NCBI GenBank assembly: GCA_964569935.1
Contig: CAZMWN010000002.1
Coordinates: forward strand, 1 to 37,756
Reading direction: 5' to 3'
Origin: an uncultured Pirellulales bacterium
GTDB lineage: Bacteria; Planctomycetota; Phycisphaerae; Sedimentisphaerales; Anaerobacaceae
DNA: 37,756 nt
Shown: piece by piece, positions 4,141 through 21,290 of the stretch
Layout: each line of letters opens with the position of its first letter
How positions within the stretch are numbered: the stretch's first letter is position 1
Notes under the pieces: model-generated
Databases searched by the model: none
Seen by the model: only the letters and a program-made list of their open reading frames with translations
Told to the model about the DNA's origin: nothing
Program-made: the position numbers and the translations under genes

Positions 4141-5220
4141 ATGGCAACAAACGACATAACCACAATGGGCAACATGCTTGATATGATAAAGTTCAAGTTG
4201 CCCAACAACAAAGCAATCCAATCAATTGCGGCTACCTTGGCTGAACGTGATGCCTGGACTCGATTCACTCCTTCTCTTGCCGCCAATAGCGGAGTCAGTC
4301 ACACGATTTTGAAACAGATTTCCTTGCCTACTGGTTACCTGGTTGATGCCGGTGGGAGCTGGAAGGAATCAAAGGCCGAGTTCGAGCCTGACGTCCTGGG
4401 CATGTTCACGATACGTTCGACTTACCGTTCCAATCCCGATTATTTCAAGAACATGGCTCCGGAAGTCGCTTCGGTGCAATTGCGCGCCCAAAAGGCTTCT
4501 CACGTAATGGCTTTGATTCAGGGCAAAAGAAATTTAATGTTAAACGGCTCGACTGCTCCGAATCAGAGTTCCATAAGAGGACTAATGGAGATGGAATCTT
4601 ATGCGACATATGATGGTAAGTTCTGCTTCTCCGCTGGTGGTGCGGACACGAATACCGACCTTAGAAGTTGCTGGCTCGCCAAGCCGGGTGTGGATACCGT
4701 TTACGATATTCACAACAAGTTTCATCCGTCTATGGGCGTTGAAATGGATGACAAAGGCGAGCAGTTGATTACCGGCCTTGGAACGAGCAGTGACGAGCAC
4801 AGATACGACTTGTTCATTGAGTTCATGCTTCAATCGGGCTTCGTAGTCGAAGACCAGAGGGCTTTGAAAAGAATCTGCAACGTGGAATGTGGTACTACGG
4901 ACAATCCGGGACAATCTTTAATTGATGCGATTACGGATGCGAGCATTATCAACGCTCCGACCGGCGGGACCTTAATGTCTTATGACACCGAAGGCAATGT
5001 CGTTGAGGAATTACAAAGTCCCTGGATTCTTTACTGTCCCGAAAGGCTTTATTCCAAACTTGTGAAATCCCAGAATGACAAGTTGTTCGTCTATACATCA
5101 GAGGAAAACATATACAGGACGAAACTTCGCATGATAGGTGACGACATAATCATCGCAAGAATGGATGCCTTGAATCATGATTTGGGTTCCGGCGAAACTT
5201 ATATAAGCGCCGCTTCTTAA
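4141..5220 (+). CDS. major capsid protein
   Basis: 359 aa from ATG 4141, with AGGAG about 8 nt upstream. The track ORF starts at an upstream TTG (4045) inside a structured spacer, which I do not accept. It follows the scaffold gene and precedes a cement-like protein. Confidence 0.7.
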   Translation: MATNDITTMGNMLDMIKFKLPNNKAIQSIAATLAERDAWTRFTPSLAANSGVSHTILKQISLPTGYLVDAGGSWKESKAEFEPDVLGMFTIRSTYRSNPDYFKNMAPEVASVQLRAQKASHVMALIQGKRNLMLNGSTAPNQSSIRGLMEMESYATYDGKFCFSAGGADTNTDLRSCWLAKPGVDTVYDIHNKFHPSMGVEMDDKGEQLITGLGTSSDEHRYDLFIEFMLQSGFVVEDQRALKRICNVECGTTDNPGQSLIDAITDASIINAPTGGTLMSYDTEGNVVEELQSPWILYCPERLYSKLVKSQNDKLFVYTSEENIYRTKLRMIGDDIIIARMDALNHDLGSGETYISAAS

Positions 5221-5253: not shown

Positions 5254-5769
5254 ATGATACTTGATAAATTAGGAGTGCTGTCAACTGCACAGGATTTGAC
5301 TAATGGTTCGACAGCCAGTGAAAACCAAATCAAAATGTCCGCTCGTGACTGGTCGCAAATCACTGATGCGTGGTTGGCGGTCGATTGTGAAACAGCCGCA
5401 GGTGGGGATACGGGGGACACTTTCAAATTCGAGCTTAGAGTTGCAACGTCAACTGCATTGACTACCCATAAGCAAGTCTGTTGTGTTGATATTACCAGTA
5501 ATGCAGACAGAAGACTTGCAACTGCGGGCAAGCCGATTGCCGGTATGAATATTGGAAAATCCCTTAAAAGCGCATGTCAGGCACTCATAGATGCTCAAAG
5601 CCTTGTGGATACGGACTTCATTTACGCCGGACTTTATACCACAATTAGTGCCGTCGGTACTATTTCGATTAACGCCGCTTTGAGTCCTCACGAGCCTCCG
5701 ACCGAAGACCACAGACAGGTAGTGGATTCCAACGTAGGTATTCCCGACAAATGCTCGGCTGCCTCTTAA
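5254..5769 (+). CDS. capsid cement/decoration protein, Bbp16-like (putative)
   Basis: 171 aa with AGGAG RBS. The N-terminus MILDKLGVLSTAQDLTNGSTASEN matches the pattern I recall for BPP-1 Bbp16-type cement proteins (MILD..l.fS.AQ.lT...). Sits immediately after the capsid gene. Confidence 0.45.
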   Translation: MILDKLGVLSTAQDLTNGSTASENQIKMSARDWSQITDAWLAVDCETAAGGDTGDTFKFELRVATSTALTTHKQVCCVDITSNADRRLATAGKPIAGMNIGKSLKSACQALIDAQSLVDTDFIYAGLYTTISAVGTISINAALSPHEPPTEDHRQVVDSNVGIPDKCSAAS

Positions 5770-5784
5770 CGAAAGGAGAATGAA

Positions 5785-8259
5785 ATGAAAAAAATAATAT
5801 TGTTTACATTGATTTTCGCCTTTCTGTGTGGAACGGCTCAGGCGGCAATGACATACGGTGCTTCTTATTATAAAGACCACATAAGCGAAGCTCGTACAGG
5901 CTCTTCTGTTGATCCGATATATTTGGCTTTTAACGAGCTGGATACGTTGCTTGCCGGTACGGACTCCGTTGACGCCATGTATTTCAATCCCACGACAGCG
6001 CCTTCCACACCATTGGAAGGCCAGCTTTATTACAACGCCGCAACGGACAACCTTGTATATCGCAACGCCTCGGCGTGGGTTACTCTTGCAACTTCTACTT
6101 CTGGTACTATGGACGAGACGTATAATCAGGGTTCTTCGATTGATGTCGATACAGATGCTGTTACCCTGACTACTTCGGATGGGGACGACAATGTCGTTCT
6201 CGCTATAGTTCAGAACGAGGCAACGAACGATAACGACGCTGTGACTATTACTATGGGCACGGGCGCTATCGGTAACGCCCTTCTAATTGACAGTGTAACG
6301 GACGGCAACGACGTTAAAGGCGATAACTGGGTTGTTACTCAGGCCGGAGCTTTGACCTGTGTTGGAGTTACGACTACCGGGGCGGTTACGATAAGCGCCG
6401 CCGATTTCACCTTCGATGATACCTACGATATTATGTGGGATACTTCAGAGGATACTTTAGTATTTAAGGACAATGCAGTTCTCGGTTTCGGTAATACGGG
6501 CGCTGCGCCGGACGTCGAGTTCAAGTGGAACACCTCTAATCTTTTAATAGAGTCGGCGGCTGAAGATACGGGCGAGATAGAAGTCGGGGCGACCAACGCT
6601 ATCGACCTCGTACTCCACGCCAATACCGCAGCCAGTGAGGTTGCTTTTAATGCTTCTACGGCTACGGCTGAATTCAACGGATACGACATTCAATTACAGG
6701 ATGCCGACCTTTTGATGTTCGGTGACGACGATGACTTTACCATTTTTAGCGATACCGAAACAGTTCTCGAATTTGACCCTAAAGTCGCTGGTAACGAGAT
6801 AAGGTTCGGTACAGCCTATACGGATGCCGTTGACATTACGTGGTATGGCGACCTTTCAGGAGATACGGTTACTTTTGATGAAGAATTATGCGAAGTCTTA
6901 TTTACCGATATTGACCTTCAACTTGACGATTCTGCTGATTTAATTTTTGGAACCGGCGATGATTTCGTTCTTGACTCCGATACGGCCAATACTCTTGACA
7001 TTATTAGTGCCGATACCGATGAAGCCGGTACTGTGAATTTCGGCAAGGATGCAAATGGTATTGACGTTGTTATGTGGGCTGCAACTTCCGGGAACAAAAT
7101 ATTCTGGGATTCTTCTGAAGGTGAAGTATTTTTTGAAGATGCCAATTTTGTTCTTAATGAAGGCTCAGATTTGAGATTTGAGGATTCGGGCGGTGCTACG
7201 GACTGGACCGTGGAATGCGATGGTGCAGAAGTTCTTGAATTCCTACCTACGGAAATTACCGACGACCAAGCGGTGCATTTCGGCGACGCCGACCATACAT
7301 CAGACCTCGTCTGGTACACTATGACTGCTTCATCGACTATCAATATCGACGCCTCTGAAGACTTGATGTATTTGGACGCCGTGGCTTTAAGAATCAACGA
7401 CGACGATGATTTATGGTTCGGTGATTCCAACGAGTTTATGATAGAATATGACGAAGACGGTACGGACAACTTGATTATCATTGCAAGTGTAGAAAACGAC
7501 GCAGTTCAGATAGGCGATGGTACTCACGCTACCGATTTTAAGATATTCTCGACCGGAGATGCCAGTGCGATTGTCAATTTTGATGCTTCCGCAGATACCG
7601 CAAACGGAGCATGGTTCTTCGGTGCGAGCGACCACGGAGTCGATGTTAATTTCTACGGCGCTACTGCAAGTCAGGAAGTTCAATGGGACCAATCCGCCGA
7701 TACGTGGTACTTCGGCAAAGACGCTGAAGGCGTGGACGTTTATTTCAATGCCAATACGACTGGTGATTACGTCTTGTGGGACGAAGGCGATGAGGACTTG
7801 AAGTTTGTAGGCGCAAATCTTGTTCTCGACGCCGATTCCGGGATAGAGAATCCGGTAGTTGTAGTTACTGACGCAGCGGAATATGACGTTACAGCCGCTA
7901 ATTCCGGCAAAGTCCACATCATTAAAGACTTGAGTCAGAATACCAGTATAGACCTTCCCGCCGAAGCTGCGGGGTTGTACTATGAATTCTGGTACTGCGG
8001 CGGTGCTGAAGAGGCTCACGACCATACCATCGACTCTGAGAATAATACCAACTACTTTATAGGCGGTGTTATTCACCATGACAATGATGACGGCTCTGTA
8101 GCTGCTGTTTCGAGTGATGGAAACAGCAATTCCAAGCTTACGTTAAGTGATGCAAGAGATGGTACAAGAGTCAAAGTTTCCTGTGACGGTTTGAACTGGT
8201 ACGTAACTGGAACGGTCAATAGTGATACTGCGCCTGCCTTTGCAGACCAGGCCGGATAA
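5785..8259 (+). CDS. acidic repeat protein, fibre/spike-like, with N-terminal signal peptide
   Basis: 824 aa with AAGGAG RBS. N-terminus is MKKIILFTLIFAFLCGTAQA/A. There are five to six degenerate repeats of roughly 110 aa (WD.S.D.L.F.D..L.FGD.DDF). Very Asp/Thr-rich. Confidence 0.7.
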   Translation: MKKIILFTLIFAFLCGTAQAAMTYGASYYKDHISEARTGSSVDPIYLAFNELDTLLAGTDSVDAMYFNPTTAPSTPLEGQLYYNAATDNLVYRNASAWVTLATSTSGTMDETYNQGSSIDVDTDAVTLTTSDGDDNVVLAIVQNEATNDNDAVTITMGTGAIGNALLIDSVTDGNDVKGDNWVVTQAGALTCVGVTTTGAVTISAADFTFDDTYDIMWDTSEDTLVFKDNAVLGFGNTGAAPDVEFKWNTSNLLIESAAEDTGEIEVGATNAIDLVLHANTAASEVAFNASTATAEFNGYDIQLQDADLLMFGDDDDFTIFSDTETVLEFDPKVAGNEIRFGTAYTDAVDITWYGDLSGDTVTFDEELCEVLFTDIDLQLDDSADLIFGTGDDFVLDSDTANTLDIISADTDEAGTVNFGKDANGIDVVMWAATSGNKIFWDSSEGEVFFEDANFVLNEGSDLRFEDSGGATDWTVECDGAEVLEFLPTEITDDQAVHFGDADHTSDLVWYTMTASSTINIDASEDLMYLDAVALRINDDDDLWFGDSNEFMIEYDEDGTDNLIIIASVENDAVQIGDGTHATDFKIFSTGDASAIVNFDASADTANGAWFFGASDHGVDVNFYGATASQEVQWDQSADTWYFGKDAEGVDVYFNANTTGDYVLWDEGDEDLKFVGANLVLDADSGIENPVVVVTDAAEYDVTAANSGKVHIIKDLSQNTSIDLPAEAAGLYYEFWYCGGAEEAHDHTIDSENNTNYFIGGVIHHDNDDGSVAAVSSDGNSNSKLTLSDARDGTRVKVSCDGLNWYVTGTVNSDTAPAFADQAG

Positions 8260-8267
8260 AGATTTTA

Positions 8268-8311
8268 AGCGGCGGGGCGGACTTCCTTCAAAAACCGCCC
8301 TCCGCTTTTTT
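8268..8311 (+). terminator. rho-independent terminator
   Basis: The arm agcggcggggcgg (8268-8280) pairs with ccgccctccgct (8295-8306) as 5+6 bp around a small internal bulge. A T6 run follows at 8306-8311. It lies just after the stop of the 824-aa gene. Confidence 0.75.
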
Positions 8312-8448
8312 AAGTAATGAAAAAAGTATTGTCATATATTTGTTTTGTTCCTGCGGTATTAGTGTTTTTGATTCTCGCAGCTTACAGTGTTTTTATTCTA
8401 AGATTGAATGGGAAGAATAATTTTAGATAGATAGACAGGAGAATTAAA

Positions 8449-9114
8449 ATGAAAAATTTAGGCAAATCTATTATTGCCATACTATTAATTATTGCCGTAA
8501 TTTTATCGGTTGTATTTATGGTCAAGCTTACTTTTGCGGAGCCACTTGACACTTATCATTCTGAATGGGTAAGAATCAAGGATTCAGCCGCCGAGGACGG
8601 AGCTACTTTTGCAGCTTCGCTTGCGCTCGACGCCAATGAAGGCATTTTTTCAAGCAAGCCATCGGGAGCATATCATATAGTATCAAGAGGAATAGCTGAC
8701 CAGCCTTATACATCTTCAGCCGGTTCAAAGTGGATGTTTGCTTTTTATGGAACAGATGCGGCTGATGAGACTTTCTCGTTTACTCTTGTAGGATGGGCTA
8801 AGGGTAATGGTATGGCTCAAATTATTTGCGAGGGAGACGGAGTTTTGGGAACTCAGGATGTCCATACCGAACCAAATGGTGATACTATAACCAATGGTTA
8901 TTGGGCTGATACTATTAGTCTTGACGAAACTTCCAAATGGCCGCTGGATATGGGCGGTGACGGTGCTAATGCACAGGTTTATAACTCCGGTGATAACGAG
9001 GTATGTATTCTCGTATTAGATTTGGCGGGTTTGGAATGGATTGATTTTGTGACTTATGACGTTGCTGGCAGCGCAGAGGCTTCGAGTATAGGAATTTACG
9101 GGCGGCTCTATTAA
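8449..9114 (+). CDS. hypothetical virion-module protein with N-terminal signal anchor
   Basis: 221 aa with AGGAG RBS. N-terminus is MKNLGKSIIAILLIIAVILSVVFMVKLTFA/EP. Confidence 0.65.
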   Translation: MKNLGKSIIAILLIIAVILSVVFMVKLTFAEPLDTYHSEWVRIKDSAAEDGATFAASLALDANEGIFSSKPSGAYHIVSRGIADQPYTSSAGSKWMFAFYGTDAADETFSFTLVGWAKGNGMAQIICEGDGVLGTQDVHTEPNGDTITNGYWADTISLDETSKWPLDMGGDGANAQVYNSGDNEVCILVLDLAGLEWIDFVTYDVAGSAEASSIGIYGRLY

Positions 9115-9530
9115 TGAAAAAATTAGTTTTTATTTTAATCTTGTTCTTTGCGGCAAACGTACAAGCTCAGCCTATTCCTGTTTTGCCTTACATAACTCAG
9201 TATATAAGAGGTCTATTGAACGACCCGAATGCCACCGAGGCGAGAGACACTCTGGAATTAGGAGAAGCGCACGACCCTAACTTTGCAAGTGTTAATATTT
9301 TGGGCAATCATTTCAATGTGGCGACGAAAAAGACGCCTTCAGGCGTATCAGATACAGGGACAAAAGGCGACCTTGCATGGGATGAAAACTATATTTACGG
9401 CTGTATTGAAACCAATACATGGCGAAGAATTGCCTGGGCGACTTGGGCAGGTGTGGAAGGATATATGATGATTTACGAGGACAGTAACACGATGGTATTT
9501 GAGGACGGTAATACAATGGTTTTTGATTAG
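9114..9530 (+). CDS. hypothetical small protein with signal peptide
   Basis: 138 aa with TAATG coupling to the previous ORF. N-terminus is MKKLVFILILFFAANVQA/QP. Confidence 0.65.
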   Translation: MKKLVFILILFFAANVQAQPIPVLPYITQYIRGLLNDPNATEARDTLELGEAHDPNFASVNILGNHFNVATKKTPSGVSDTGTKGDLAWDENYIYGCIETNTWRRIAWATWAGVEGYMMIYEDSNTMVFEDGNTMVFD

Positions 9531-9537
9531 GTGATGT

Positions 9538-12500
9538 ATGAAGAAGAAAATAATCGTTATTATAATTATTCTTATTTTTGTGGCGTCCGTTTACGCCGCC
9601 GAAGTCAAGTGGTCGGCAATGGCAACCAAAAGCAATGCTTCTTCGGACGATTTGACGTTGATAGTCGATGACCCCGGCGGGACGCCTACATCTTATGCAA
9701 TAACAAGAGATAATTTTATTAAAAGCTGGACAGGTGACGTAAATATAGCCACGGTTGGTACGATAGGCACGGGAACGTGGAATGGAACGGCAATCGACAT
9801 TTCCGATTATACGAACCTTGCTGTTGTCGATTTACTTTCATTATCAGACGATACTATCGATGCGAATACGGCGGCAATAGTAGAAGACGACGCCAAGCAT
9901 CTGGCTACTAATGAACAAATTTACGACTTCGTGATTGGATTAGGTTATATCACCGCCGACCCCAATACTCACGACGCCGTAACCTACGATACGAACATGG
10001 CAATAATCTTCAGTCTTACCAATCAGGTTATTGAAGTTAATATAGCGACCCCTACAAACGGAAGGGACGATGCCTTATCGACTTCGGATGACATTTACGA
10101 CTGGGGAGTAGCGGCATTTCAGGTTTTGGACGCGAATTTGACTGCTATTGCGGCGATTACTTATGGTTCAAAGGGAAATTTGAGAAATACAGGAGAAGGG
10201 GCATGGGACATAGACGCCAACAGCTATTCACTCAGCAATCACGACCATTCAGGAACTTACGAACCGGCGGACGCCAATTTAACTGCTATAGCCGCATTAA
10301 CATACGATTCGACCGGCTTTTTGCGTAACACAGGAGAAGGCACATGGGATATTGACGCCAATAGTTATCAATTGTCCGATGCCAATCTGACAACTCTTTC
10401 CGCTCCAACCGCATGGCGATTATTCTATAGCGATGGTGATTCCATTATTCAACAGCTTGCTCTTGGAACGGACGGTCAATATCTTAAATCCAACGGTGCA
10501 ACTTCCGCCCCGACATTCGATACGCCCGGCGGTTCCGGTGATATGCTCAAATCGACTTACGACGTCGCAGAGGACGGCTATGTCGATGGTAACGACACCG
10601 CATACGATGCTACGAGCTGGAACGGCAATATTAATGCTCCATCGATGAATGCAGTTTATGATTACTTACATCAGATAGATTCCGATGATGATGGTTCCTT
10701 AGTGGATGAAAGCTGGTGGACAACATGGAAGCTGGACGATTGGGCTTCTCCCGATGATAATACCGACCTTAACGTCTCAACTTCCGCTCACGGCTTGATG
10801 GTAAAACTACCGAACGATTCAACAAAAGTATTCGATGGCTCAGGTTCGTGGGTTGATGTGGAGGACTTATCAGATGAGATAGCGGCTGGTATTGCCGAAG
10901 GTGAACTCAACAATTCGATAATTGTTTCCGATGATATTAAGGACGGTGAAGTTGATGTCTCGGATGATACTAACCTGACTGTTGTTGATTTACTTAAATT
11001 AACGGACGATTCGATAGATGCGAATACGGCGGCGGTAGTAGAAGATGACGCTAAACATCTGGCGACTAACGAACAAATTTACGATTGGGGAGTGGCGGCT
11101 TTTCAGCCTCTTGAATCAACGTTGACCGATATAGCTGATGGTACTATAGCAGAAAACTTAGTGAATACAGACAATCCCTGGGCAGACGATGAAGTTGCAG
11201 ACGATATAACGGCGAGCAGTTATCTTGATTTATCGACTTACGACAATGCCGAGGACGGCTTTGTAGATGGTAATGATACTGCCTATAACGCTACGAGCTG
11301 GAACGGCAATATCAATGCACCTTCGATGAACGCCGTAAGAGATAAGATAGAGGCGCTTCCCGGCGGCCACGATGCAGTGACGTTAGATACCAACATGGCG
11401 ACTATTTACACTTTGACTTCACAGGCCATTGAAGTAAATATCGTAAGTCCCACCGACGGCAGGGACGATGCTATCTCGACGTCAGACGATGTTTATGACT
11501 TTGTTATAGGTCTTGGATATATCACGGCTACGTTGACTGAGGAAGAGGTTGAAGACTTCGTCGGTGGGATGTTAGGTGGAACAGAGACCCATATTTCGGT
11601 GACTTATCAGGATGATACCGGAGATATTGACTTTGTAGTTTCTCCTTCATCAGTTGCCGGGGCAATAGGAGCGGGTGAATATGCTGATAACACGATTAAT
11701 AACGCAGACTTAAACTGGTCGGACATTACATATCTTTCGGACACCGGAAAGTTAGTCGTAGGCGACAATGAGAGCACAAACGAAAACAATCTCATCGCTT
11801 TTATTGCCGATGCTAACGGAGCAGGGAACGAGATTTTAGAGACTGACGGGGACTTTCATTATAATCCCTCGACGGGTACGGTAACGGCTACGGAATTTGT
11901 TGGCGGAGGAGCGGGATTGACGGCTGTGGATGCTGCTACCGGCGACTCAGCAACGGATTTCTTCGACGCCGGCGAGATTGCCGATGATCGTATTAGCAAC
12001 ACGCTGACTTCAAGTACATGCACTGGCAATGCAGCTACCGTAACGACTAACGCCAATCTAACAGGTGAAGTAACCTCCGTTGGTAATGCAGCGACAATAG
12101 CCGATAGTGTAACCGTAACGGGATGGGTATTAGGGACGTCTTCAGCGACTCAAATAACTTCTCCTACTCTAATTACCGACCTTATAGATACTACCGGTGC
12201 AGCGGATATGGACTATGGTAGCGGTGATGTTACCGACCATACTTTCATTGCCGATGGCGGAACGGCTGTTATCGACGGCTCCTTCCAGTTCCCGGATGCG
12301 GACGGTTCGCCTTCCGTTGTAGGGGAATTTCAATACGATAATACCGTAACTGGAATAAAAGACGGGACTCTCGTATGGTATGACGATGATGAAGTAAGAT
12401 ATTTAGTCGATGTAAACGTTCTTCCGAGCGACGATGATTTCGTAGTCTCTTACGATGCCGATAATGATATGTTCTATATGAAAACCGACGCCGACTCCGG

Positions 12501-14850
12501 GGGAGCTACGGCGTGGGACGATATTACCAATCCGGACGCCGCCGATACTATCGACTTCGGAGTTCATATTACTCAGCTTGACGTCAACGACTTTAGAATA
12601 GGTGACGTAGGCGCAGGGTATATGAAAATCGCCAAACATGCAGTCTCTTTTGTGGGGACGGGTGATATAGACTTACCGAATGACTCTGTCGATGATGCCG
12701 ATATAAATTGGGGTGACCTTACCGATTTGGCTGCTGGTGGAGTTTTGAGTGGCGATTGTGTCGATGAAAATCATATTGCAGATAACGGTATTGATTCGGA
12801 GCACTATAACGATGATTCAATTGATAATGCTCATATAAACTGGGCTGACATTGATAACTTGGGTGACGAAGGGGCAGTAACTTTGGCGGCAACCGTTACA
12901 GTAGCCGATGATGAGGATACTGATGACGACCAAGAGATAGTATTTACTACCGACAATGCTACATTGGAATCGGATGGTGATTTCCACTATAGCCCCGACA
13001 CCGGGACGGTTACAGCGACGGAATTTTCAGGAGGTGGAGCCAGTCTAACGGCGGTGGATGCGGCTACAGGTGATTCAGCGACGGATTTCTTCGACGCTGG
13101 TGAGATTGCTGATGACCGTATTAGCGATACGCTGACTTCAAGTACATGCACTGGTAACGCAGCTACAGTGACGACAAATGCAAACCTGACAGGCGATGTG
13201 ACCAGTACGGGCAACGCTACAGATATTACAGAGTCTGTTCTTGCCGTTGGTGGAACTGATACTGTTTTCCCGGCAGACCCGGGCGCTGATAAATATTTAA
13301 TGTGGGACGATGACCCAGGTGAACTTGTCTGGAGTGCTGTGGCGGGAGCCGGTGATATGACGAAGGCCGTCTATGATGTGGCAGAAAATAGCTTTGTTGA
13401 CGGCAATGATACGGTTTATTCGAGTGCAATGAACGGCAATATTGACGCCCCATCTTCGAATATTATATATGATTATCTGCATCAGATTGATACTGACGAT
13501 GATGGTGACGCCGACAATATTCAGGATTTATTTATTAAATTAGTAGGCGATACTACCGGAGCGATGAGCGAGGATTTGAATTTAGACGATGGAACTTTTG
13601 TTGTTGATTATGATAGTAACAGAATAGGCATAGGAACTGCTACTCCCAATGACCCATTAACGGTAAAGGCAGATGCAAATAATAATACTATCAGATTGAT
13701 TGAGACGGACGGAGACGAATATGTCGATATAAGGATAGCTGCAAATGGAAATTTCGAGATATACAGGGATGGTGGACAAATAGCTTTTTCGATAGATGAC
13801 TATACCGGTCGAATTGGAATTGGAACTGATACTCCGGACGCACTACTTCACATTCAACAGCCGGACACTACTTATTCGTTTCTAAAACTTAAAACTGATG
13901 CTACTTGGCTTGGTCTTTCTCCTTCTGCCGATGATGGTTTACTATGGGGAACTAATATTGCAGGTGGTGTTTCAAACGGGAATACGATTTTTACTTCCTT
14001 TGATAATCTTAGTTCAGACCACGACCACGAAGCTGTCGAAACCGATCCTGCTATTTATCTTCATTCTGCGACCGACCCGGATACAGCTAATACCGAATGG
14101 GGAAAGTTTATATTCAAAGGAACAGGTGCCGGCGGCGGATATTTAGAAATATCGACAGGTGTAGGAGATATTGCTTTGGCGCCGATAGGCAGTGTTGGTA
14201 TCGGTACTACGAGTCCGGATACCAAACTCCAAGTGGTAGGAGCATTGAAAGTCGGCGATGACAATACGAATTATTTCTCGGCGGGGACTACCGGTGACGT
14301 TTCTTTTACCGGTTCGGCTTCGTTTAGTCCCCCATCCGGAACTGATCCTGATGTCGATGCTTCGGGAGAGATTTCTATTGATACGGATGGAGCGAATGAG
14401 CCTAACGATGTCATTTTAAGAACGGCAGATACGGGCGGTGATACACAGTATGTATTGGCAAGAAGTATAAAAATGTATTCTTTCCACATAGAAAACCCGG
14501 ACGAATTGGAGACAGGTTCGGGTAGAGCGGACAAATGGGTCAAAGTTGGCAGCCCTAAAGGTGTAAGTTTTAAAATAACGAAAATAGAGGCATGGAGCGA
14601 TTCGGATAATTACGATTTTGAGCTTTATGAAACAAATGGAAGAACAGATTTTAGCCAGGCCAACGATTCTCTTATAGACACAATCGAATGTGATGCAAAT
14701 GGTACAGGAATATATACAGACCAGGAGACTTCCGGTTTCGATGATGCAATAATAGATGCGGACGACTGCATATTATTCGTTCATAAAGCTGGTACTACAA
14801 GTAAGGTATCGGTTGATATTTGGGGCTATGAAAATGCGAATGTGGACTGA
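9538..14850 (+). CDS. giant mosaic tail-fibre/adhesin-like protein with signal peptide
   Basis: 1770 aa. N-terminus is MKKKIIVIIIILIFVASVYA/AE. It contains several families of internal repeats. The C-terminal part carries three IGIGT..P...L.V motifs of the kind seen in fibre proteins. Confidence 0.75.
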   Translation: MKKKIIVIIIILIFVASVYAAEVKWSAMATKSNASSDDLTLIVDDPGGTPTSYAITRDNFIKSWTGDVNIATVGTIGTGTWNGTAIDISDYTNLAVVDLLSLSDDTIDANTAAIVEDDAKHLATNEQIYDFVIGLGYITADPNTHDAVTYDTNMAIIFSLTNQVIEVNIATPTNGRDDALSTSDDIYDWGVAAFQVLDANLTAIAAITYGSKGNLRNTGEGAWDIDANSYSLSNHDHSGTYEPADANLTAIAALTYDSTGFLRNTGEGTWDIDANSYQLSDANLTTLSAPTAWRLFYSDGDSIIQQLALGTDGQYLKSNGATSAPTFDTPGGSGDMLKSTYDVAEDGYVDGNDTAYDATSWNGNINAPSMNAVYDYLHQIDSDDDGSLVDESWWTTWKLDDWASPDDNTDLNVSTSAHGLMVKLPNDSTKVFDGSGSWVDVEDLSDEIAAGIAEGELNNSIIVSDDIKDGEVDVSDDTNLTVVDLLKLTDDSIDANTAAVVEDDAKHLATNEQIYDWGVAAFQPLESTLTDIADGTIAENLVNTDNPWADDEVADDITASSYLDLSTYDNAEDGFVDGNDTAYNATSWNGNINAPSMNAVRDKIEALPGGHDAVTLDTNMATIYTLTSQAIEVNIVSPTDGRDDAISTSDDVYDFVIGLGYITATLTEEEVEDFVGGMLGGTETHISVTYQDDTGDIDFVVSPSSVAGAIGAGEYADNTINNADLNWSDITYLSDTGKLVVGDNESTNENNLIAFIADANGAGNEILETDGDFHYNPSTGTVTATEFVGGGAGLTAVDAATGDSATDFFDAGEIADDRISNTLTSSTCTGNAATVTTNANLTGEVTSVGNAATIADSVTVTGWVLGTSSATQITSPTLITDLIDTTGAADMDYGSGDVTDHTFIADGGTAVIDGSFQFPDADGSPSVVGEFQYDNTVTGIKDGTLVWYDDDEVRYLVDVNVLPSDDDFVVSYDADNDMFYMKTDADSGGATAWDDITNPDAADTIDFGVHITQLDVNDFRIGDVGAGYMKIAKHAVSFVGTGDIDLPNDSVDDADINWGDLTDLAAGGVLSGDCVDENHIADNGIDSEHYNDDSIDNAHINWADIDNLGDEGAVTLAATVTVADDEDTDDDQEIVFTTDNATLESDGDFHYSPDTGTVTATEFSGGGASLTAVDAATGDSATDFFDAGEIADDRISDTLTSSTCTGNAATVTTNANLTGDVTSTGNATDITESVLAVGGTDTVFPADPGADKYLMWDDDPGELVWSAVAGAGDMTKAVYDVAENSFVDGNDTVYSSAMNGNIDAPSSNIIYDYLHQIDTDDDGDADNIQDLFIKLVGDTTGAMSEDLNLDDGTFVVDYDSNRIGIGTATPNDPLTVKADANNNTIRLIETDGDEYVDIRIAANGNFEIYRDGGQIAFSIDDYTGRIGIGTDTPDALLHIQQPDTTYSFLKLKTDATWLGLSPSADDGLLWGTNIAGGVSNGNTIFTSFDNLSSDHDHEAVETDPAIYLHSATDPDTANTEWGKFIFKGTGAGGGYLEISTGVGDIALAPIGSVGIGTTSPDTKLQVVGALKVGDDNTNYFSAGTTGDVSFTGSASFSPPSGTDPDVDASGEISIDTDGANEPNDVILRTADTGGDTQYVLARSIKMYSFHIENPDELETGSGRADKWVKVGSPKGVSFKITKIEAWSDSDNYDFELYETNGRTDFSQANDSLIDTIECDANGTGIYTDQETSGFDDAIIDADDCILFVHKAGTTSKVSVDIWGYENANVD
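9814..9927 (+). repeat. intragenic repeat A, copy 1 (NLAVVDLL...NEQIYD)
   Basis: 38 codons. 33 of 38 residues are identical to the copy at 10972-11085 (my count). Confidence 0.8.
10972..11085 (+). repeat. intragenic repeat A, copy 2 (NLTVVDLL...NEQIYD)
   Basis: In-frame copy of 9814-9927, joined to a different downstream module (WGVAAFQ instead of FVIGLGYIT). Confidence 0.8.
11845..12090 (+). repeat. intragenic 246-nt repeat E, copy 1
   Basis: 82 codons (DGDFHYNPSTGTVTATEF...NLTGEVTSVGNA). 75 of 82 residues are identical to the copy at 12973-13218. Confidence 0.85.
12973..13218 (+). repeat. intragenic 246-nt repeat E, copy 2
   Basis: 82 codons. By hand count, 59 of 246 nt differ from copy 1 but only 7 of 82 residues do. 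Confidence 0.85.
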
Positions 14851-14851
14851 T

Positions 14852-15622
14852 ATGAAACGATTGATTTTATCTACTATTTTCATACTATTTTGCACTAATT
14901 TAGTACATGGAGTTGTAGGCTCTCCGATTGCTTTGTGGTCTTTAGAGAGCGGTGCATTTACGGTAGATTCTGAAGGTGGCAATACTTTGACCGAGGGCGA
15001 AGCTCCAGATGCTGAGACCGGGGATTATAAGGAAGGTTCTTCATGTGCCGATTTTACACCCGCAGCCGAAGGCGGTGACAGTCTTTACATAGCGGATGGC
15101 GACCTTGACGCAGACTTCCCGTTGAAAAACGGTGTGGGGACACAGAAGATTACTTTCTGTTGCTGGTGTAAATTTGATACTCTGCCGACCAATGTGAACG
15201 ATTATAGAATCCTTCTCTACAAATTAGATACTCTTCAATTAGCGATACGCAAACATGCTGACACAAATACTTATTTTTGTTTCGATTATTCCACTGACGG
15301 CTCTTCGTGGGAAGGTGTAACCTATCATGCTTCTGCTGTTGCGGTTGACACATGGTATCACTTCGCATTCGGGATGGACAGTGACGGCGACTATAAGATG
15401 AGGATATGGGACGATACCGCTCAAGACAGCTTCGGAGCAGACATCGGAGATACGGCAAGCGCTTTCGTGCCGAGTAACGAGACTTTATATATAAGCTATC
15501 CTTCCACTCAGGGAATGGACGGGTTGATTGATGAAGTGTTGATATATGATGACTACCTTGACGACTCCACGATTGACCAAATACGAGAAGGGAAAAAATC
15601 ACAGGTAATAATAATACAATGA
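14852..15622 (+). CDS. LamG/concanavalin-A-like lectin-fold protein with signal peptide
   Basis: 256 aa from ATG 14852, one nt after the stop of the 1770-aa gene. N-terminus is MKRLILSTIFILFCTNLVHG/VV. The C-terminal motif GMDGLIDEVLIYDDYLDDSTIDQI is typical of LamG_3-type domains. Confidence 0.6.
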   Translation: MKRLILSTIFILFCTNLVHGVVGSPIALWSLESGAFTVDSEGGNTLTEGEAPDAETGDYKEGSSCADFTPAAEGGDSLYIADGDLDADFPLKNGVGTQKITFCCWCKFDTLPTNVNDYRILLYKLDTLQLAIRKHADTNTYFCFDYSTDGSSWEGVTYHASAVAVDTWYHFAFGMDSDGDYKMRIWDDTAQDSFGADIGDTASAFVPSNETLYISYPSTQGMDGLIDEVLIYDDYLDDSTIDQIREGKKSQVIIIQ

Positions 15623-16800
15623 AAAAATTACTATTCATAATTTTATTGTGCGCAACGGCTTACGGAGCTAATGAAGTGCGCTCTTATTATGAAAGTTCTC
15701 TTAATCTGTACTTTTGTGTAAGAAATTCGAGCGGGCAGGTCTGGTATGTTTCAGGCGATACTTTCGAGGACTGGGGGACAGGTGGACGTGACGCAGACGA
15801 TTACGATATTTCCCTTACCGACAAGTCGGGGAGTTTATATCTCGGCGATTTCGATACCGATATAAGCGAAGGATATTATTCGATAGTGATTTACCAGAAA
15901 GCAGGGGCTAATCCGGCGGATACGGACTATGCTTTGATGTATGAAGAAGGATACTGGGACGGCTCGAACTGGCAAACAACTTCAAAGCAGCTTCAAAATA
16001 CTATAACTGATACGAACGAAATTCAAACTGAACTGGCTGACGGCGGAAGGACTGATGTTCTGATAGACGCTGTTAAAGCAAAGACAGACAATCTTCCGTC
16101 AGACCCCGCCGACCAGAGCAAAATAGACGCCAATTTCGCAGCTCTTAACGACCCGAACGTAGAGGAAATAAGGGCAGAAATAGACGCAAATTCGACTCAA
16201 TTAGCGGAAATTCTAACCGATACCGGAACTACAATACCGTCAACTTTAACTACAATGACGGGCTATCTTACGAATATAATGGCCGATAGCAATGAAATTA
16301 TCACGTATGCGGAAAGATGGGATTCTAATTTCACTTCAATTCTTAACGATACGAACGAATTACAGACTGATTGGGCTGACGGAGGGCGGCTCGATACAAT
16401 TCTCGATTCAATTAAGTCGATGACAGACCTTATCGTATTGGTATCGACGGACGTTAAAACGGCGGACGATGTCAATTCATTTACATTGACGGCGGGAGTA
16501 GCTACGGCAGATGCTTATAACGGAATGAACATTGCCATTCAGGACGCCGACGATTCACATTACGAGACGAGAAGAATAAAAGACTGGACGGCGGCAAGAG
16601 TAGTCACAGTCGATAGCGACTTTAGCTTTACACCTGCCGAGAGTGACGTAGTTTACATTTGGGGAATAAGCTACGGAGGACTTCTTGATGCTATTTACGA
16701 ACGTATATCAGTACCAGTCTATCATATTGATACTACGGGGACGTCATCGAGAGGTGCGGGAGGTACGACTTTTTATGACGCTTCAGGAGATGATCCTTGA
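15619..16800 (+). CDS. fibre-like protein with signal peptide and coiled-coil repeats
   Basis: 393 aa with an ATGA overlap. N-terminus is MKKLLFIILLCATAYG/AN. Repeats include TDTNEIQTELADGGRTDVLIDAVKAKTDNL and NDTNELQTDWADGGRLDTILDSIKSMTDLI. Confidence 0.65.
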   Translation: MKKLLFIILLCATAYGANEVRSYYESSLNLYFCVRNSSGQVWYVSGDTFEDWGTGGRDADDYDISLTDKSGSLYLGDFDTDISEGYYSIVIYQKAGANPADTDYALMYEEGYWDGSNWQTTSKQLQNTITDTNEIQTELADGGRTDVLIDAVKAKTDNLPSDPADQSKIDANFAALNDPNVEEIRAEIDANSTQLAEILTDTGTTIPSTLTTMTGYLTNIMADSNEIITYAERWDSNFTSILNDTNELQTDWADGGRLDTILDSIKSMTDLIVLVSTDVKTADDVNSFTLTAGVATADAYNGMNIAIQDADDSHYETRRIKDWTAARVVTVDSDFSFTPAESDVVYIWGISYGGLLDAIYERISVPVYHIDTTGTSSRGAGGTTFYDASGDDP

Positions 16801-16815
16801 AATTAGGAGTTAACA

Positions 16816-17685
16816 ATGGCCGATAATGACGCTAAAACATTTGAAGTGAATCTCGCTATATCCAAGACGAAAGCGGGGATTCAGGATACGGGTGAACTTT
16901 ACTCTTCGGGTATAGATGATAGTGTTTTCGCAGACTTTAATACCGGTGAGAACAATACTATTAAACGTGCTGCTTTGTATTACGAGACGTGCCTTTTGAG
17001 ATGTCTCGATGAGATAAGGCCGGACTTCGCCAAGAGGTTCGCCGATTTAGGTAACAGGATAACAATCAATAAAGAATACGGCGATTGGTCTTGTCTTTTT
17101 GAAAAACCTTCCAACTTTCTTTACTTAATAAGGCAAACGGACGAGAGCAGTAAAAAATTAAATTATGATTGTCAGCCTTTGGATTTCACGAATTACGCCC
17201 ATACGGTGACAGGTTCGGACGATGATGTTTACGTCTGTACGACAGCACATACCTCTGCTGACGATACTGACGACGGTGAGCCGCCTGATGACGATGGAAG
17301 CGGAAATTGGACTCTCGATAGTACGGACGAATACACAGGTGCAGACTGGGAGGAGAGCAAGGCTTATAAAGCTTCACAAAGCGGAATTCTCTTGGCTACA
17401 AATACTTTATCAAATAGCGACGGCGACAGTGCCTATATCGAGTATATTCCTTACGAGCAGGCTGGGATTAACGATGACCCAACGAAATACACCGAGTCTT
17501 TCAAGCATGCTTTTGCTACACTTCTCGCCAGTGAAATTGAGACGGATTTCGAGAGAAGGCAAAAACTTCTTAACGAATATGAACTTATAGCGAAGCCGAA
17601 GGCTAAAGAGACTAAAACCAAAGACGACCACGAAAAGAAAACGACTTTAGTTGTTGATGCAAGGAGCAATCTAAGAGTAGGATGA
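16816..17685 (+). CDS. virion protein in the adaptor / tail-tubular-A position (putative)
   Basis: 289 aa with AGGAG RBS. It directly precedes, and is ATGA-coupled to, the nozzle-like gene. The assignment rests on position only. Confidence 0.4.
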   Translation: MADNDAKTFEVNLAISKTKAGIQDTGELYSSGIDDSVFADFNTGENNTIKRAALYYETCLLRCLDEIRPDFAKRFADLGNRITINKEYGDWSCLFEKPSNFLYLIRQTDESSKKLNYDCQPLDFTNYAHTVTGSDDDVYVCTTAHTSADDTDDGEPPDDDGSGNWTLDSTDEYTGADWEESKAYKASQSGILLATNTLSNSDGDSAYIEYIPYEQAGINDDPTKYTESFKHAFATLLASEIETDFERRQKLLNEYELIAKPKAKETKTKDDHEKKTTLVVDARSNLRVG

Positions 17686-20600
17686 AAAGAGTATTTCTTT
17701 TAACATTTTTGTGCTCCATAGCTTTAGGGGTGACTACGAAGAAGAATGTATCTCTTCATTCTTTTAATGCAGGCGAGCTTTCTCCGTTAATGAATGCCCG
17801 CAGTGAACTCGTTAAATACAAGACTGGTGCTAAGACTCTTGTTAATATGCTCGTAAGGTCGCAAGGGCCTGTCCAGAGACGGCCTGGAACGAAATACATC
17901 GCCGAAGTAAAAGACTCAAACGACTTTGTAAGACTTATTTCTTATAGAGTAAATGACGACAATGAATACATCGTGGAAATGGGCGATGAATACTTGAGAT
18001 TTTGTCACGATGGCTCTCAAGTGACTTATGGGGAAAGTCCTTACGAAGTAAGTTCTCCTTACGATGCAAACGATATATTTGAGGTTCAGTATGCCCAGGA
18101 TGCTGAATATATGAGGTTCGTTCATCCTGACTATCCACCATATAAGCTTGCCTATTCCGATGAGACTTCATGGGCAATGGACAAAATAGCATTTCGTAAC
18201 GGCCCGTTTCTCAAAGAAAACGAAGACACCGCGGTAAAAATAACTCCGACTTACGAAGTCGAGCCTTCCGGTGATATAACAAACGAGGCTGGATGCGAGT
18301 ACGATGCAAGCAGCGCATACGCAGATTTCTATACTGCTTCAAAGGCGTTTGATAATGTTATTTCGTATTTGGATGGTTGGGGTGCGACAAGTTACGATGA
18401 TGAATGGATAAGCTGTAAGTGGACGGAAGCCAAGACGATAAAGAAAGTCAGGATTCAGAATTGTTTTAATAAAGATTGGATAGCTGTTGACGTTGCAAGA
18501 TGCAAAATAGAAGGTAGTAATAACGGTTCGGATTGGACGAAAATACCAATCAATGATTGGGCGGGTGCTTGCCATGTTTATGATACGAACGAGGCCCTTT
18601 TGGATTGGACTCGTGATTACGAATTATGGGCGACGCTCTATCTTGATAACGATACGGCCTATACTTATTATCGTGTTTATTGTTATGATTCGTGGGGTTC
18701 TTATTACAATTGGACCGGAAGGTTCGGCAGTTCGGAGATTTTACTTGGCCTTAATGAAATAGAAATGATGGAAGATGCCGATTATACTGGCGAAGGTGAA
18801 GTAAAGCTTGAAGCGACAGACGATATATTCGATGAAGAGCACGAAGGTTCCTTGTGGCAAATAAGCCACGTTCTCGATTCCAATAGTATTAAAGGTCAAT
18901 TCGGTGGTTCGGATGAAACCAAACTATATTACGATTATGACAACCCCGGAGCCGGTTGGGTAGAATCTGATTATTCCGGTGAGATAAACGTATATGAGAA
19001 TCAATACATAGATTTTTCCACGCATTCGAGCTGGTCAGGTACTATAATTCTTCAAAATTCATACGATGACGGCACTACATGGCACATAGTATGTGAACAT
19101 ACATACGATTACGACGGCAATATTATCTGGAGTGGTCAGGAAAGGGAAGACAATGCTGTATATAGGATTTATATGAAAACCTATAACGGCGGATTTCCAT
19201 GTTTCAATTTATCTTCGAGGGGAATGACTTACGGCGGTGTAGTAAAGATTACTTATTACGTTGACGCCAACGAAGTGTATGGCACTATATTAAAAGAACT
19301 TGCAAGTACAGATGCCACTTACAAATGGTCGGAGGGGGCATGGAGCGATTATCGTGGCTGGCCTCGTACAATAGCTCATCACGAACAAAGATGTATTTAC
19401 GGCGGATCATCTTCTTATCCCGATAATATTTGGGCTTCTATAACAATGGAAGAAAATGAAGATTACGACGATTTCGATGTAGGATTAGGAGACAACGATG
19501 CCGATGCCTGGACTTATATCTTAGCGGGAGTTAATCAAATTCAATGGATGCTGTCGAGAGAGTTTTTAATGATAGGCACTTCGATAGGCATAGGTAGATT
19601 AGGCCAGCCCGACAAACCTATTACTCCGACATTCGATCCTACTTTCAGAATGCAGGCCATGAACGGCTCGGCTTATATACAGGCTGTGCCGGCGGGCAAT
19701 GCTATACTTTATATAGAACGTGGCTCCCAAAAGGTCAGGGAAGTAACTTATACTCATACTTCCGAACGGTACGTTGCGCCTGATATGACAATTCTCTCCG
19801 AGCATATAACAGGTGATGGAATTACTCAGATAGCTTTTCAGAACAGGCCAGACCTTATTTTATGGTGCGTTCGTGAAGATGGGACTTTGCTTTCTTTTAC
19901 TTACAATAAAGACCATGAAGTCCTCGCTTGGGCGAGACATACAACTGGCGACTCAGATGATTTTGAATCAATAGCCTGCATTCCTAATACCAACGAAGAC
20001 GAATTGTGGGTAATAACTAAAAGGGAAATCAATTCGATTGACAGGCGTTACATAGAGCAATTCCAGCCCGTGGATTGGGGAACCGACCAAAATGACTGTT
20101 GGTTTGTGGATTGTGCCAAAGAACCAACGCTTTATGAGGGCGCACCGTCAAAAGGTAAGGATTCTAAGGAAATATTACTGGCATACAATCCTGTACCCGG
20201 CATTATTGTTACCGATGTTCCACCATTGTATTTATCCCAGACCTATAAGATATATGAAGACCTTGACCATCTTGAGGGCAGGGATGTATCTGTTTTTGCT
20301 GATGGTTGGCCGATAGGAACATATACGGTTGCGAATGGGCGAATATTTCCGCCAATTGAATATACTAATATAATTGTCGGGCTTCCTTACACTTCGACTT
20401 TCGAGACGATGCCCTTGGCAACTTATACGGATTTTGGTATGAGTGCCTATCAAAGAACGCAAGTTCAAAATCTCACTTTGGATTTATACGAAACTCTCGA
20501 CTTTAACGTGGGAACAGATTCGACTCATACTCAGGCACAGGCCATATCTTCGCTTAAAACCGGTCTGTGGCCAACGGAGTTCCCAAGAGGTAGATTTACA

Positions 20601-20690
20601 GAGCCAACAATATATTTCGATGTTAATGAACCTTCTCCGTTTACTTTAAGGGGAATTAGTTGTCAACTTGAAATTTCTTATCAGGAATAA
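17682..20690 (+). CDS. tail tubular protein B / nozzle-like protein with inserted discoidin-like domain
   Basis: 1002 aa. The N-terminal motif SLHSFNAGELSPLMNARSELVKYKTGAKTLVNMLVRSQGPVQRRPGTKYI matches the pattern I recall for BPP-1/T7-group nozzle ('stabilisation') proteins. A GTG at 17730 is a possible alternative start. Confidence 0.5.
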   Translation: MKRVFLLTFLCSIALGVTTKKNVSLHSFNAGELSPLMNARSELVKYKTGAKTLVNMLVRSQGPVQRRPGTKYIAEVKDSNDFVRLISYRVNDDNEYIVEMGDEYLRFCHDGSQVTYGESPYEVSSPYDANDIFEVQYAQDAEYMRFVHPDYPPYKLAYSDETSWAMDKIAFRNGPFLKENEDTAVKITPTYEVEPSGDITNEAGCEYDASSAYADFYTASKAFDNVISYLDGWGATSYDDEWISCKWTEAKTIKKVRIQNCFNKDWIAVDVARCKIEGSNNGSDWTKIPINDWAGACHVYDTNEALLDWTRDYELWATLYLDNDTAYTYYRVYCYDSWGSYYNWTGRFGSSEILLGLNEIEMMEDADYTGEGEVKLEATDDIFDEEHEGSLWQISHVLDSNSIKGQFGGSDETKLYYDYDNPGAGWVESDYSGEINVYENQYIDFSTHSSWSGTIILQNSYDDGTTWHIVCEHTYDYDGNIIWSGQEREDNAVYRIYMKTYNGGFPCFNLSSRGMTYGGVVKITYYVDANEVYGTILKELASTDATYKWSEGAWSDYRGWPRTIAHHEQRCIYGGSSSYPDNIWASITMEENEDYDDFDVGLGDNDADAWTYILAGVNQIQWMLSREFLMIGTSIGIGRLGQPDKPITPTFDPTFRMQAMNGSAYIQAVPAGNAILYIERGSQKVREVTYTHTSERYVAPDMTILSEHITGDGITQIAFQNRPDLILWCVREDGTLLSFTYNKDHEVLAWARHTTGDSDDFESIACIPNTNEDELWVITKREINSIDRRYIEQFQPVDWGTDQNDCWFVDCAKEPTLYEGAPSKGKDSKEILLAYNPVPGIIVTDVPPLYLSQTYKIYEDLDHLEGRDVSVFADGWPIGTYTVANGRIFPPIEYTNIIVGLPYTSTFETMPLATYTDFGMSAYQRTQVQNLTLDLYETLDFNVGTDSTHTQAQAISSLKTGLWPTEFPRGRFTEPTIYFDVNEPSPFTLRGISCQLEISYQE

Positions 20691-20693
20691 ACT

Positions 20694-21278
20694 ATGGGAG
20701 CTTTATCTTTATTTATGATGGCTGGTGGCCAGACGATGCAGGGCATTCAGAAATATCGCCAGCTCAAAAAACAAAAAAGTTCCTTAAAGGCACAGGCGGC
20801 AGAGCTTGACTTGCAGGCTAAATATACCGAACGAATGGCATTGAGAGGCCAAAGAGAACTATTAGAGCAGGAAGATATTACTTTAGGCACTCAAAAAGCG
20901 AGAACGGCAAAGGCCGGATTGAGAGTAGGTGGTGGTTCAGCTTCTGCAAGGAGAAAAGCATTATCTGAGAAATATGGTCGTGCGAGAGAAACGATTGAGA
21001 TGCAGGCAAGCGAAGAAATCAGGCGATTAAATTATCAGGCTGCGATTCTCCGCAAAAGGGCTAAAGAGGCCAAAAAAGCGAGCAAATGGTCGAAGTTGAC
21101 TTCTTTACTGGCTGGTGGTGTCGCTTTAGGAATTGGTTTATATGGTTTGGGGTTTTTTGGTGGTGGTGCAGCGGGGACTGCTGCGTCAACTAGCGGTCTC
21201 GGTGGTATGAGTAGTAGCGTTGGTGGCTCTGGCGGTGGATTATTAGGTGGTCCTACTGGATTAATACCACCAGTTTAA
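20694..21278 (+). CDS. internal virion protein (gp14-position), coiled-coil plus Gly-rich hydrophobic tail
   Basis: 194 aa, which fits the T7 gp14 size class. C-terminus is LLAGGVALGIGLYGLGFFGGGAAG...GGSGGGLLGG. Confidence 0.45.
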   Translation: MGALSLFMMAGGQTMQGIQKYRQLKKQKSSLKAQAAELDLQAKYTERMALRGQRELLEQEDITLGTQKARTAKAGLRVGGGSASARRKALSEKYGRARETIEMQASEEIRRLNYQAAILRKRAKEAKKASKWSKLTSLLAGGVALGIGLYGLGFFGGGAAGTAASTSGLGGMSSSVGGSGGGLLGGPTGLIPPV

Positions 21279-21290
21279 CAAAGGTAAATA

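Follow-up and report, generated by a model that had tools for sequence, protein, structure and literature searches.

Predicted Sec-type export signals on the nozzle and fibre-like proteins of an uncultured podovirus-like phage lineage

In the textbook account, the morphogenesis of tailed phages is entirely cytoplasmic. Virion precursors with cleavable signals, and virion assembly outside the cytoplasm, are known from the filamentous phages (Inoviridae; for example, pVIII and pIII of M13). Signal-arrest-release (SAR) endolysins and pinholins carry an N-terminal, Sec-dependent hydrophobic segment, the release of which is timed to membrane depolarisation, and P22 gp7, an internal ejection protein of a tailed phage, loses a short N-terminal leader to a cytoplasmic host oligopeptidase. 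To our knowledge, no tailed phage carries cleavable export signals on its nozzle and fibres, and a full-text literature search turned up no podovirus whose tail parts are described as bearing signal peptides. In this study, we analysed a 37.8-kb stretch of DNA (contig CAZMWN010000002.1; hereafter, the window), which is part of an uncultured podovirus-like phage whose sequence is found in salt-marsh metagenomes and in which every gene lies on the + strand. Seven of eight consecutive genes in it (5785-20690), including that of the tail nozzle, encode N-termini with the layout of Sec-type signal peptides, the adaptor gene being the sole exception.

The six signal-bearing proteins encoded ahead of the adaptor are designated F1 to F6. 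F1 is a very acidic, fibre-like protein of 824 amino acids (aa) (5785..8259), with a predicted signal at 5785-5844 (MKKIILFTLIFAFLCGTAQA↓AMTY, the arrow marking the predicted cut). F2 (221 aa; 8449..9114) has its signal at 8449-8538, with an h-region of 18 residues and the junction A-x-A↓EPLDTYH, and F3 (138 aa; 9114..9530) has one at 9114-9167 (MKKLVFILILFFAANVQA↓QPIP). F4 is a repetitive, very acidic fibre protein of 1770 aa (9538..14850; signal at 9538-9597, MKKKIIVIIIILIFVASVYA↓AEVK); F5 (256 aa; 14852..15622; signal at 14852-14911, MKRLILSTIFILFCTNLVHG↓VVGS) matches the concanavalin-like lectin domain Laminin_G_3 (PF13385, E 1.6e-9); and F6 is a fibre-like protein of 393 aa (15619..16800; signal at 15619-15666, MKKLLFIILLCATAYG↓ANEV). 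The seventh signal, at 17682-17729 (MKRVFLLTFLCSIALG↓VTTKKNVSLHSFNAGELSPL), belongs to the nozzle (tail tubular B, T7 gp12-type; 1002 aa; 17682..20690). The signal-less protein encoded between F6 and the nozzle is the adaptor (tail tubular A-like; 289 aa; 16816-17685), which matches the tail-protein family phrog_394 with E 4.4e-7.

All seven N-termini show the n/h/c layout over a total predicted length of 16-30 residues. The n-region at the extreme N-terminus is MK[KR] or MKNLGK (MKK, MKR or MRR in the related phages described below); the h-regions, with a mean Kyte-Doolittle hydropathy of 2.7-4.0, cover 9-13 residues in six of the proteins and 18 in F2; and the c-region ends in A-x-A, V-x-A, V-x-G or A-x-G. 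The predicted mature N-termini include AMTYGASYYK, EPLDTYHSEWVR, ANEVR and VTTK. The best 8-residue Kyte-Doolittle values of the h-regions were 2.8-4.4, above those of classical E. coli signals (2.3-3.0), and such very hydrophobic h-regions would suggest co-translational targeting of the type mediated by the signal recognition particle (SRP). The signals were assessed with a heuristic n/h/c detector of our own. It flagged 8 of the 35 genes of the window, seven of them within the eight-gene run that starts at 5785 and ends with the gene starting at 17682, the other being a small lysis-like membrane protein at 26984, outside the run; this clustering was significant by Fisher's exact test (p = 9e-6). 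As a background, 4 of ~84 non-genic open reading frames passed the detector, each weakly.

A first-pass annotation made from the sequence had pointed to Sec-type cleavable signals in this run as unexpected on tail proteins, and we judge that recognition to be correct. The N-termini that it quoted for the starts at 5785, 8449, 9114, 9538, 14852, 15619 and 17682 were reproduced by translation. The good ribosome-binding sites or translational coupling that it attributed to these starts were also found, with AGGAG-type Shine-Dalgarno sequences before 5785 and 8449, GGTGA before 9538, and coupling at 9114, 14852, 15619 and 17682, where the start overlaps or abuts the upstream stop (ATGA at 17682-17685).

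Among the seven, the nozzle is certainly a virion part. It was identified by matches to phrog_376 (E 1.7e-159) and to PDB 8ck1, 'Tail Nozzle' (E 4.8e-76), and by 224 phage records in a tblastn search, and its gene, the only nozzle gene of the window, lies directly downstream of that of the adaptor with the ATGA overlap. Proteins of the T7 gp12 type start a few residues before the motif F-x-x-GE-x-SP; the nozzles of the window and its lineage depart from this rule by an N-terminal extension of 16-22 residues. More than 30 signal-less nozzle homologues start 7-12 residues before SFNAGELSP. In signal-positive nozzles this distance is 25-32 residues, of which 10 would remain after the predicted cut. 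The extension was present in all 11 close relatives and in two distant ones (L073 and L075), and the junction in the 11 relatives reads A-[LMVI]-G↓[AV]T or A-V-A↓A. Thus, the nozzle signal, which had been treated as depending on whether ATG 17682 is used, is borne out and not optional, the start being coupled and the extension kept in all close relatives. The closest nozzle relative, on the P0004 contig (1.5x coverage), appears to be signal-less, yet a signal is encoded upstream with an in-frame TAG. This TAG falls at signal position -2 (L068 88-137; MRKTLFITAILSTLC, then the stop, then GVTIKQ), and the gene caller began at a GTG just past it; it could mean that the gene is a pseudogene or that the stop is recoded, or be an error of sequencing. 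Separately, residues 208-290 of the nozzle of the window form a discoidin-like (F5/8 type C) insert, which scored just under the Pfam threshold. The window has no second nozzle-like paralogue; most relatives encode one directly downstream of the nozzle, often with its own signal (for example, L001 12406-15147 and L003 6220-8316).

The residues at the predicted cleavage site were assessed in alignments anchored on the conserved mature motif and, thus, independently of the detector. In the F2 family, position -1 was Ala in 87 of 91 members (96%), and position -3 was A in 43, V in 17, T in 11, S in 8, L in 8 and G in 2 (89 of 91), with a bulky or charged residue at -2, while the sequence of the h-region was not conserved. 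Among the 36 signal-positive members of the F6 family, position -1 was A in 24, G in 11 and T in 1, that is, A or G in 35 of 36, and position -3 was A in 16, I in 7, V in 5, C in 4, S in 2, L in 1 and T in 1. The F6 family is split between members reading MK...A-x-A/G↓ANEI and 14 signal-less members that start M-[AS]NEI, which corresponds to the predicted +1. In both the nozzle and F6 families, therefore, the signal is a discrete, separable module placed in front of otherwise complete proteins. Because the mature-anchored alignments follow the -3/-1 rule and the signal-less homologues start at the predicted cut, export is the best supported of the options that the first-pass annotation had listed. 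Taken together, we consider it likely that the seven N-termini are functional Sec-type signals that are cleaved by signal peptidase I.

Other classes of N-terminal signal did not fit. For a twin-arginine translocation (Tat) signal with its S/T-R-R-x-F-L-K motif, the window and the low-GC relatives have KK or KR, RR occurs only in the high-GC relatives and lacks the FLK context, and the h-regions are strongly hydrophobic. For a type IV pilin-like (class III) signal, the G↓F/M-T-L-I-E motif is missing from all seven N-termini. A SAR domain is contradicted by cores rich in Ile, Leu and Phe and by the conserved A-x-A sites behind them. A lipoprotein signal cleaved by signal peptidase II would need the lipobox [LVI][ASTVI][GAS]C, but the Cys frequently found at about -6 has L or F directly in front of it (FLC, LFC, LLC) and is not part of a lipobox; the sole lipobox-like fit occurs in one relative, L002 (VMSC), and was put down to chance. 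This Cys, ~6 residues upstream of the predicted cut (C-[STG]-x-A-x-A/G↓), is present in the F1, F5, F6 and nozzle signals of the window, in the majority of nozzle signals overall and in 19 of 36 signals of the F6 family.

To place the run among related phages, as the first-pass annotation had suggested, nozzle, adaptor and F2 were used as queries against metagenomic phages. About 12 distinct relatives were recovered (L001/L065, L002/L064, L003, L057-L060, L062/L063, L067, and the distant L073 and L075, whose nozzles are only 30% identical to that of the window), with a GC content of 0.47-0.61, and the feature proved to be common to all of them. In these relatives, all genes between the capsid-associated gene and the adaptor were signal-positive, as were the nozzle and, usually, the second nozzle-like paralogue, and a signal was found in none of the portal, scaffold, capsid, adaptor and internal proteins. 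The adaptor starts MADN... in all relatives and is always signal-less, and the boundary between signal-less and signal-bearing proteins coincides with the physical adaptor-nozzle joint of the particle. As the GC content rises from 42% to 61%, the signal residues move from K/I/F-rich to R/L/A-rich while the signals persist, which indicates conservation by selection at the amino-acid level. The feature was also all-or-none per genome: at a stringent detector threshold, 46 of 147 + strand open reading frames were positive in the lineage, compared with 0 of 461 from 36 loci around signal-less nozzle homologues in bacterial genomes (p = 9e-32).

The lineage had no members in the collection of deposited phage genomes, nor in 185,579 bacterial and archaeal genomes representing species, and no cultured relative was found. 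Neither a megablast search with 20 kb nor tblastn searches with F2 and F6 gave a match in deposited phage genomes, and the best deposited relative of the nozzle, MW202510, is an ordinary signal-less podovirus. GTDB genomes, among them those of Lentisphaeria, Verrucomicrobiota and Desulfovibrio, contained 53 homologues of the nozzle, and all were signal-less, so that no host is assignable to the signal-positive lineage. The F2 family comprised 95 homologous clusters and the F6 family 3390 representatives. Signals of the same type occur on the fibre-like F6-like and Pel9A-like proteins of the unrelated tape-measure phage L072, so that fibre-like proteins with export signals would not be confined to this lineage; from L072 and from the many signal-positive members of the F6 family, it may be that uncultured phages commonly export their receptor-binding proteins. 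The L072 region at 6754-12226, in a phage with a Mu gpT-type capsid and the tape measure, is a duplicated block with two identical, signal-positive Pel9A-like proteins of 508 aa and a truncated copy of the start of the F6-like gene, and is either genuinely duplicated in tandem or an artefact of assembly.

The case for F1 to F6 as virion parts is one of position and architecture, from which we regard them as putative tail components. F1 homologues with a signal and an ↓A[MVL]TY junction were found in L065, L064, L058, L060, L062, L067 and P0009; the homologues share a common N-terminus and have divergent C-termini, that of L002 being beta-helix-like. The C-terminus of F3 matches the tail-protein PHROG phrog_17312 (E 1.3e-6), and its homologues in L059, L062 and L067 carry signals, as do the N-terminal homologues of F4 in L003 and L059. 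F1 and F4 are both repetitive and nearly free of Lys and Arg (3% in sum), with net charges of -134 and -263, respectively; the internal repeats of F4 are long, and most of its 11 D/E-x-N-x-S/T sequons are copies of DANLT. The start codon of F5 lies 1 nt past the F4 stop, and the F5 homologues of L057 and L062 retain MKRLLIL.... In an AlphaFold2 (AF2) model, the mature part of F2 is a jelly-roll beta-sandwich (predicted local distance difference test score, pLDDT, of 88) with no significant PDB match; F2 was considered as a periplasmic chaperone and is not recognisable as one. In the AF2 model of F6 (pLDDT of 82), the mature part combines a beta-sandwich and a C-terminal beta domain with long helices. 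Foldseek searches with the F2 and F6 models returned only weak jelly-roll or immunoglobulin (Ig)-like matches, those of F6 being to Ig-like domains of phage baseplate or tail-tip proteins, and PDB sequence searches with F1, F4 and F6 returned no match. In the signal-less F6-like proteins P0158 and P0073, the N-terminal beta-sandwich of F6 is fused to a gp6-type head-tail connector (Phage_connect_1; 'phiE125 gp8 family'), and this fusion suggests a neck-attached position for the N-terminal domain of F6.

From the signals and their distribution, we infer that the nozzle and the fibre-like proteins are exported and cleaved, and we tentatively propose that this lineage of sediment podoviruses builds its distal tail, a nozzle hexamer with all fibres and spikes, in the periplasm and joins it at lysis to adaptor-capped, DNA-filled heads, a proposal with at best an even chance of being right. 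The head would be built and filled with DNA in the cytoplasm, where its portal, capsid and cement-like protein would be made along with the internal proteins and the adaptor. The nozzle and all fibre-, spike- and lectin-like proteins would be targeted co-translationally via SRP to SecYEG, translocated, and cut after A-x-A/G. They would then fold in the periplasm and, speculatively, might pre-assemble there, and heads and tails could be joined at the adaptor-nozzle seam once the inner membrane has been opened late, by holin lesions or lysis, a step that is equally speculative. In T7, the closed portal valve can retain DNA before the tail is added (PMC6702177), which makes heads waiting for tails plausible.

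Several points weigh against this proposal. We know of no tailed phage that assembles tail parts outside the cytoplasm. The mature N-termini of the nozzles have one or two Lys or Arg residues at +4/+5, which is mildly unfavourable to Sec export. As marks of an extracytoplasmic life, disulfides and N-glycosylation gave nothing general: Cys content and even parity were no higher in signal-positive than in signal-less nozzles, and N-glycosylation sequons showed no general enrichment, being raised in F4 only, from its internal DANLT repeats. No genes for export, Sec components, chaperones or signal peptidase were found in the window. Finally, adaptor binding reopens the portal valve in T7, and it is the nozzle gates that retain the DNA (PMC6702177), so that an adaptor-bearing head awaiting an exported nozzle might leak its DNA.

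Export and cleavage also have to be weighed against readings in which the N-termini do other work. The N-termini could remain uncleaved and unexported, serving as hydrophobic plugs at the adaptor-nozzle collar or holding tail parts to the membrane from its cytoplasmic side and so concentrating them for assembly, much as the first-pass annotation had envisaged with its attachment plugs and membrane-tethered assembly intermediates. The N-terminal 45 residues of T7 gp12 lie in the platform domain beside the adaptor, and the docking site of the fibres is between adaptor and nozzle (PMC6702177); in such a layout all these N-termini would converge at one place, and the signals do sit exactly on the parts that meet at the collar. 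However, neither plug nor tether gives a reason for keeping a basic n-region and an A-x-A site, with Ala at -1 in 96% of the F2 family, while the hydrophobic core drifts, and the conserved site is left over in both. The signal-less nozzle and F6 homologues manage without the segment, starting at the predicted cut, and a signal of the same type is present on the fibre-like proteins of the unrelated L072. Moreover, h-regions of 9-13 residues are too short to span the membrane or to form a stable anchor, and a basic N-terminus predicts an N-in/C-out topology and not a cytoplasmic tether. We therefore regard this reading as unlikely. A dual fate, in which the exported copies are not virion parts and act in receptor masking or destruction, as free depolymerases or lectins, or in superinfection exclusion, while virions use a non-exported fraction or a signal-less isoform, seems improbable to a similar degree. 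It would suit the lectin- or enzyme-like partners (Laminin_G_3 of F5, the discoidin insert of the nozzle, the beta-helix of the F1 homologue of L002 and the Pel9A-like proteins of L072), and a signal-less isoform could start at the GTG at +1 of the nozzle of the window or at the ATG at -2 in four relatives. These internal starts near the cut are not conserved, however; most nozzle relatives have none, and the G/A↓A junction of F6 allows none. Furthermore, the nozzle has no obvious use off the virion, and uncleaved precursors would tend to aggregate in the cytoplasm. Of the first-pass suggestion that these are exported proteins and not virion parts at all, the first half is the better supported, by the -3/-1 rule and the homologue starts, and the second fails for the nozzle, which is the only one encoded in the window and carries the signal.

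It is much less probable that the N-termini are membrane-active peptides retained in the virion and breaching the host envelope at infection, comparable to the loops with which the tail knob of phi29 forms pores or to the lytic peptides that animal viruses without an envelope use. A hexameric nozzle would indeed bear six hydrophobic helices, and T7-type internal proteins also act on membranes; yet the N-terminus of the nozzle maps to the adaptor-facing platform and not to the distal tip, the feature is common to six unrelated fibre or lectin proteins, and the conserved cleavage motif would stay unexplained. No more credit can be given to the idea of cytoplasmic chaperone tags, namely, hydrophobic, basic-flanked stretches bound by DnaK and linked to the J-domain of a 1368-aa internal protein, which we hold to be very improbable. 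The protein encoded at 22842-26948 does contain a DnaJ domain, and over about the first third (query residues from 31), J-domain included, it shares 50-56% identity with homologues in L062 and L063. Such a protein, however, is packaged and ejected, so that its action would fall early in infection; a chaperone tag could lie anywhere in a protein and would require no A-x-A site; and L072 has signal-positive proteins without such a J-domain protein in the stretch examined. Chance or a gene-calling artefact can practically be dismissed in view of the clustering in the window (p = 9e-6) and the contrast between lineages (p = 9e-32), and given that the signals are conserved across GC-divergent relatives and begin at translationally coupled start codons. 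Export with cleavage by signal peptidase I remains our preferred explanation of the N-termini.

The rest of the virion module in the window is signal-less. It opens with a T7-type portal (352-2100; PF12236 and PHROGs), followed by small open reading frames and a scaffold-like protein (3166-3936) in the head module, a major capsid protein of the epsilon15 gp7 type (~4141-5220; PF20911), and a capsid-associated protein of 171 aa (5254-5769). Small SEC-C-motif proteins are encoded beside the capsid genes in three relatives (L001 129-1076, in which the gene is split by an HNH-like insert; L002 2143-2496; and L075 1438-1752), and none is present in the window; SEC-C is the zinc tail through which SecA binds SecB. 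Downstream of the nozzle lie three internal, ejection-type virion proteins, of which the first (194 aa; starting at 20694) is T7 gp14-like (phrog_418), the second (516 aa) starts at 21291, and the third is the 1368-aa protein at 22842-26948 (Pfam DnaJ, E 1.7e-10); a weak PF24072 match also falls within this module (20694-26948). The J-domain of the third covers residues 296-344, with the HPD motif in KYHPDK, and, if ejected together with the genome, could bring in the DnaK of the host as infection begins. The three internal proteins contain no cysteine in 2078 residues, compared with 16 cysteines in the nozzle and ~5 in each of the small head proteins. Recombination and other genes follow. A 290-aa protein at 27811-28683 matches phrog_6247 ('DNA topoisomerase') with E 1.5e-110 and has no Pfam match; it is flanked by two small membrane proteins, at 26984 and 28712, which may belong to the lysis system. 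Within the window, no endolysin was recognised and no tRNA genes were found, and a promoter and terminator scan gave counts no higher than in shuffled sequence.

The presence of a predicted cleavable export signal on an essential, conserved tail part across a whole lineage challenges the view that tailed phages are assembled wholly in the cytoplasm. If the proposal is true, it would represent a new assembly route for tailed phages, with heads and tails made in separate compartments, and would bear on lysis timing and head stability. Possible reasons for such a route could be the extracytoplasmic folding or modification of receptor-binding proteins, or the avoidance of cytoplasmic immune sensors or receptor precursors. 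It would also affect the annotation of viral dark matter, where signal peptides are often cited against a virion role.

In comparison with known systems, the N-termini resemble the Sec/signal peptidase I signals of OmpA, PhoA and DsbA in their n/h/c regions, small residues at -3/-1, length of 16-30 residues and separability, and differ from them in belonging to a tailed phage, whose nozzle and fibres carry them, in their very hydrophobic h-regions, in the frequent Cys at about -6, and in that several are just 16 residues long. SAR segments are weakly hydrophobic, Gly/Ala/Ser-rich, uncleaved and carried by lysis enzymes, whereas the cores here are Ile/Leu/Phe-rich and are followed by A-x-A. As in P22 gp7, a short N-terminal peptide is predicted to be lost; unlike gp7, the proteins proposed to lose it are exported tail parts. 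The virion proteins of M13 are likewise signal-bearing, and assembly outside the cytoplasm, as in M13, is what we propose for the distal tail; the signal of F6 even begins with MKKLLF, as does that of M13 pIII. Unlike the filamentous phages, which have no cytoplasmic capsid and are extruded, the present phage has a signal-less, icosahedral, DNA-packaged head that would have to join a signal-bearing tail. The particle itself is like one with a T7 tail (gp11, gp12, gp17) and an epsilon15-type capsid, as judged from the PF12236 portal, the PF20911 capsid, the adaptor followed by a gp12-type nozzle and the gp14-like internal protein. In the known T7-type podoviruses, however, the tail is built on the filled head in the cytoplasm, whereas the distal parts here carry export signals, and the gene order differs in that the fibre genes lie between the capsid and the adaptor. 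The sequences themselves are ordinary Sec signals; what sets them apart is that a tailed phage carries them on its nozzle and fibres.

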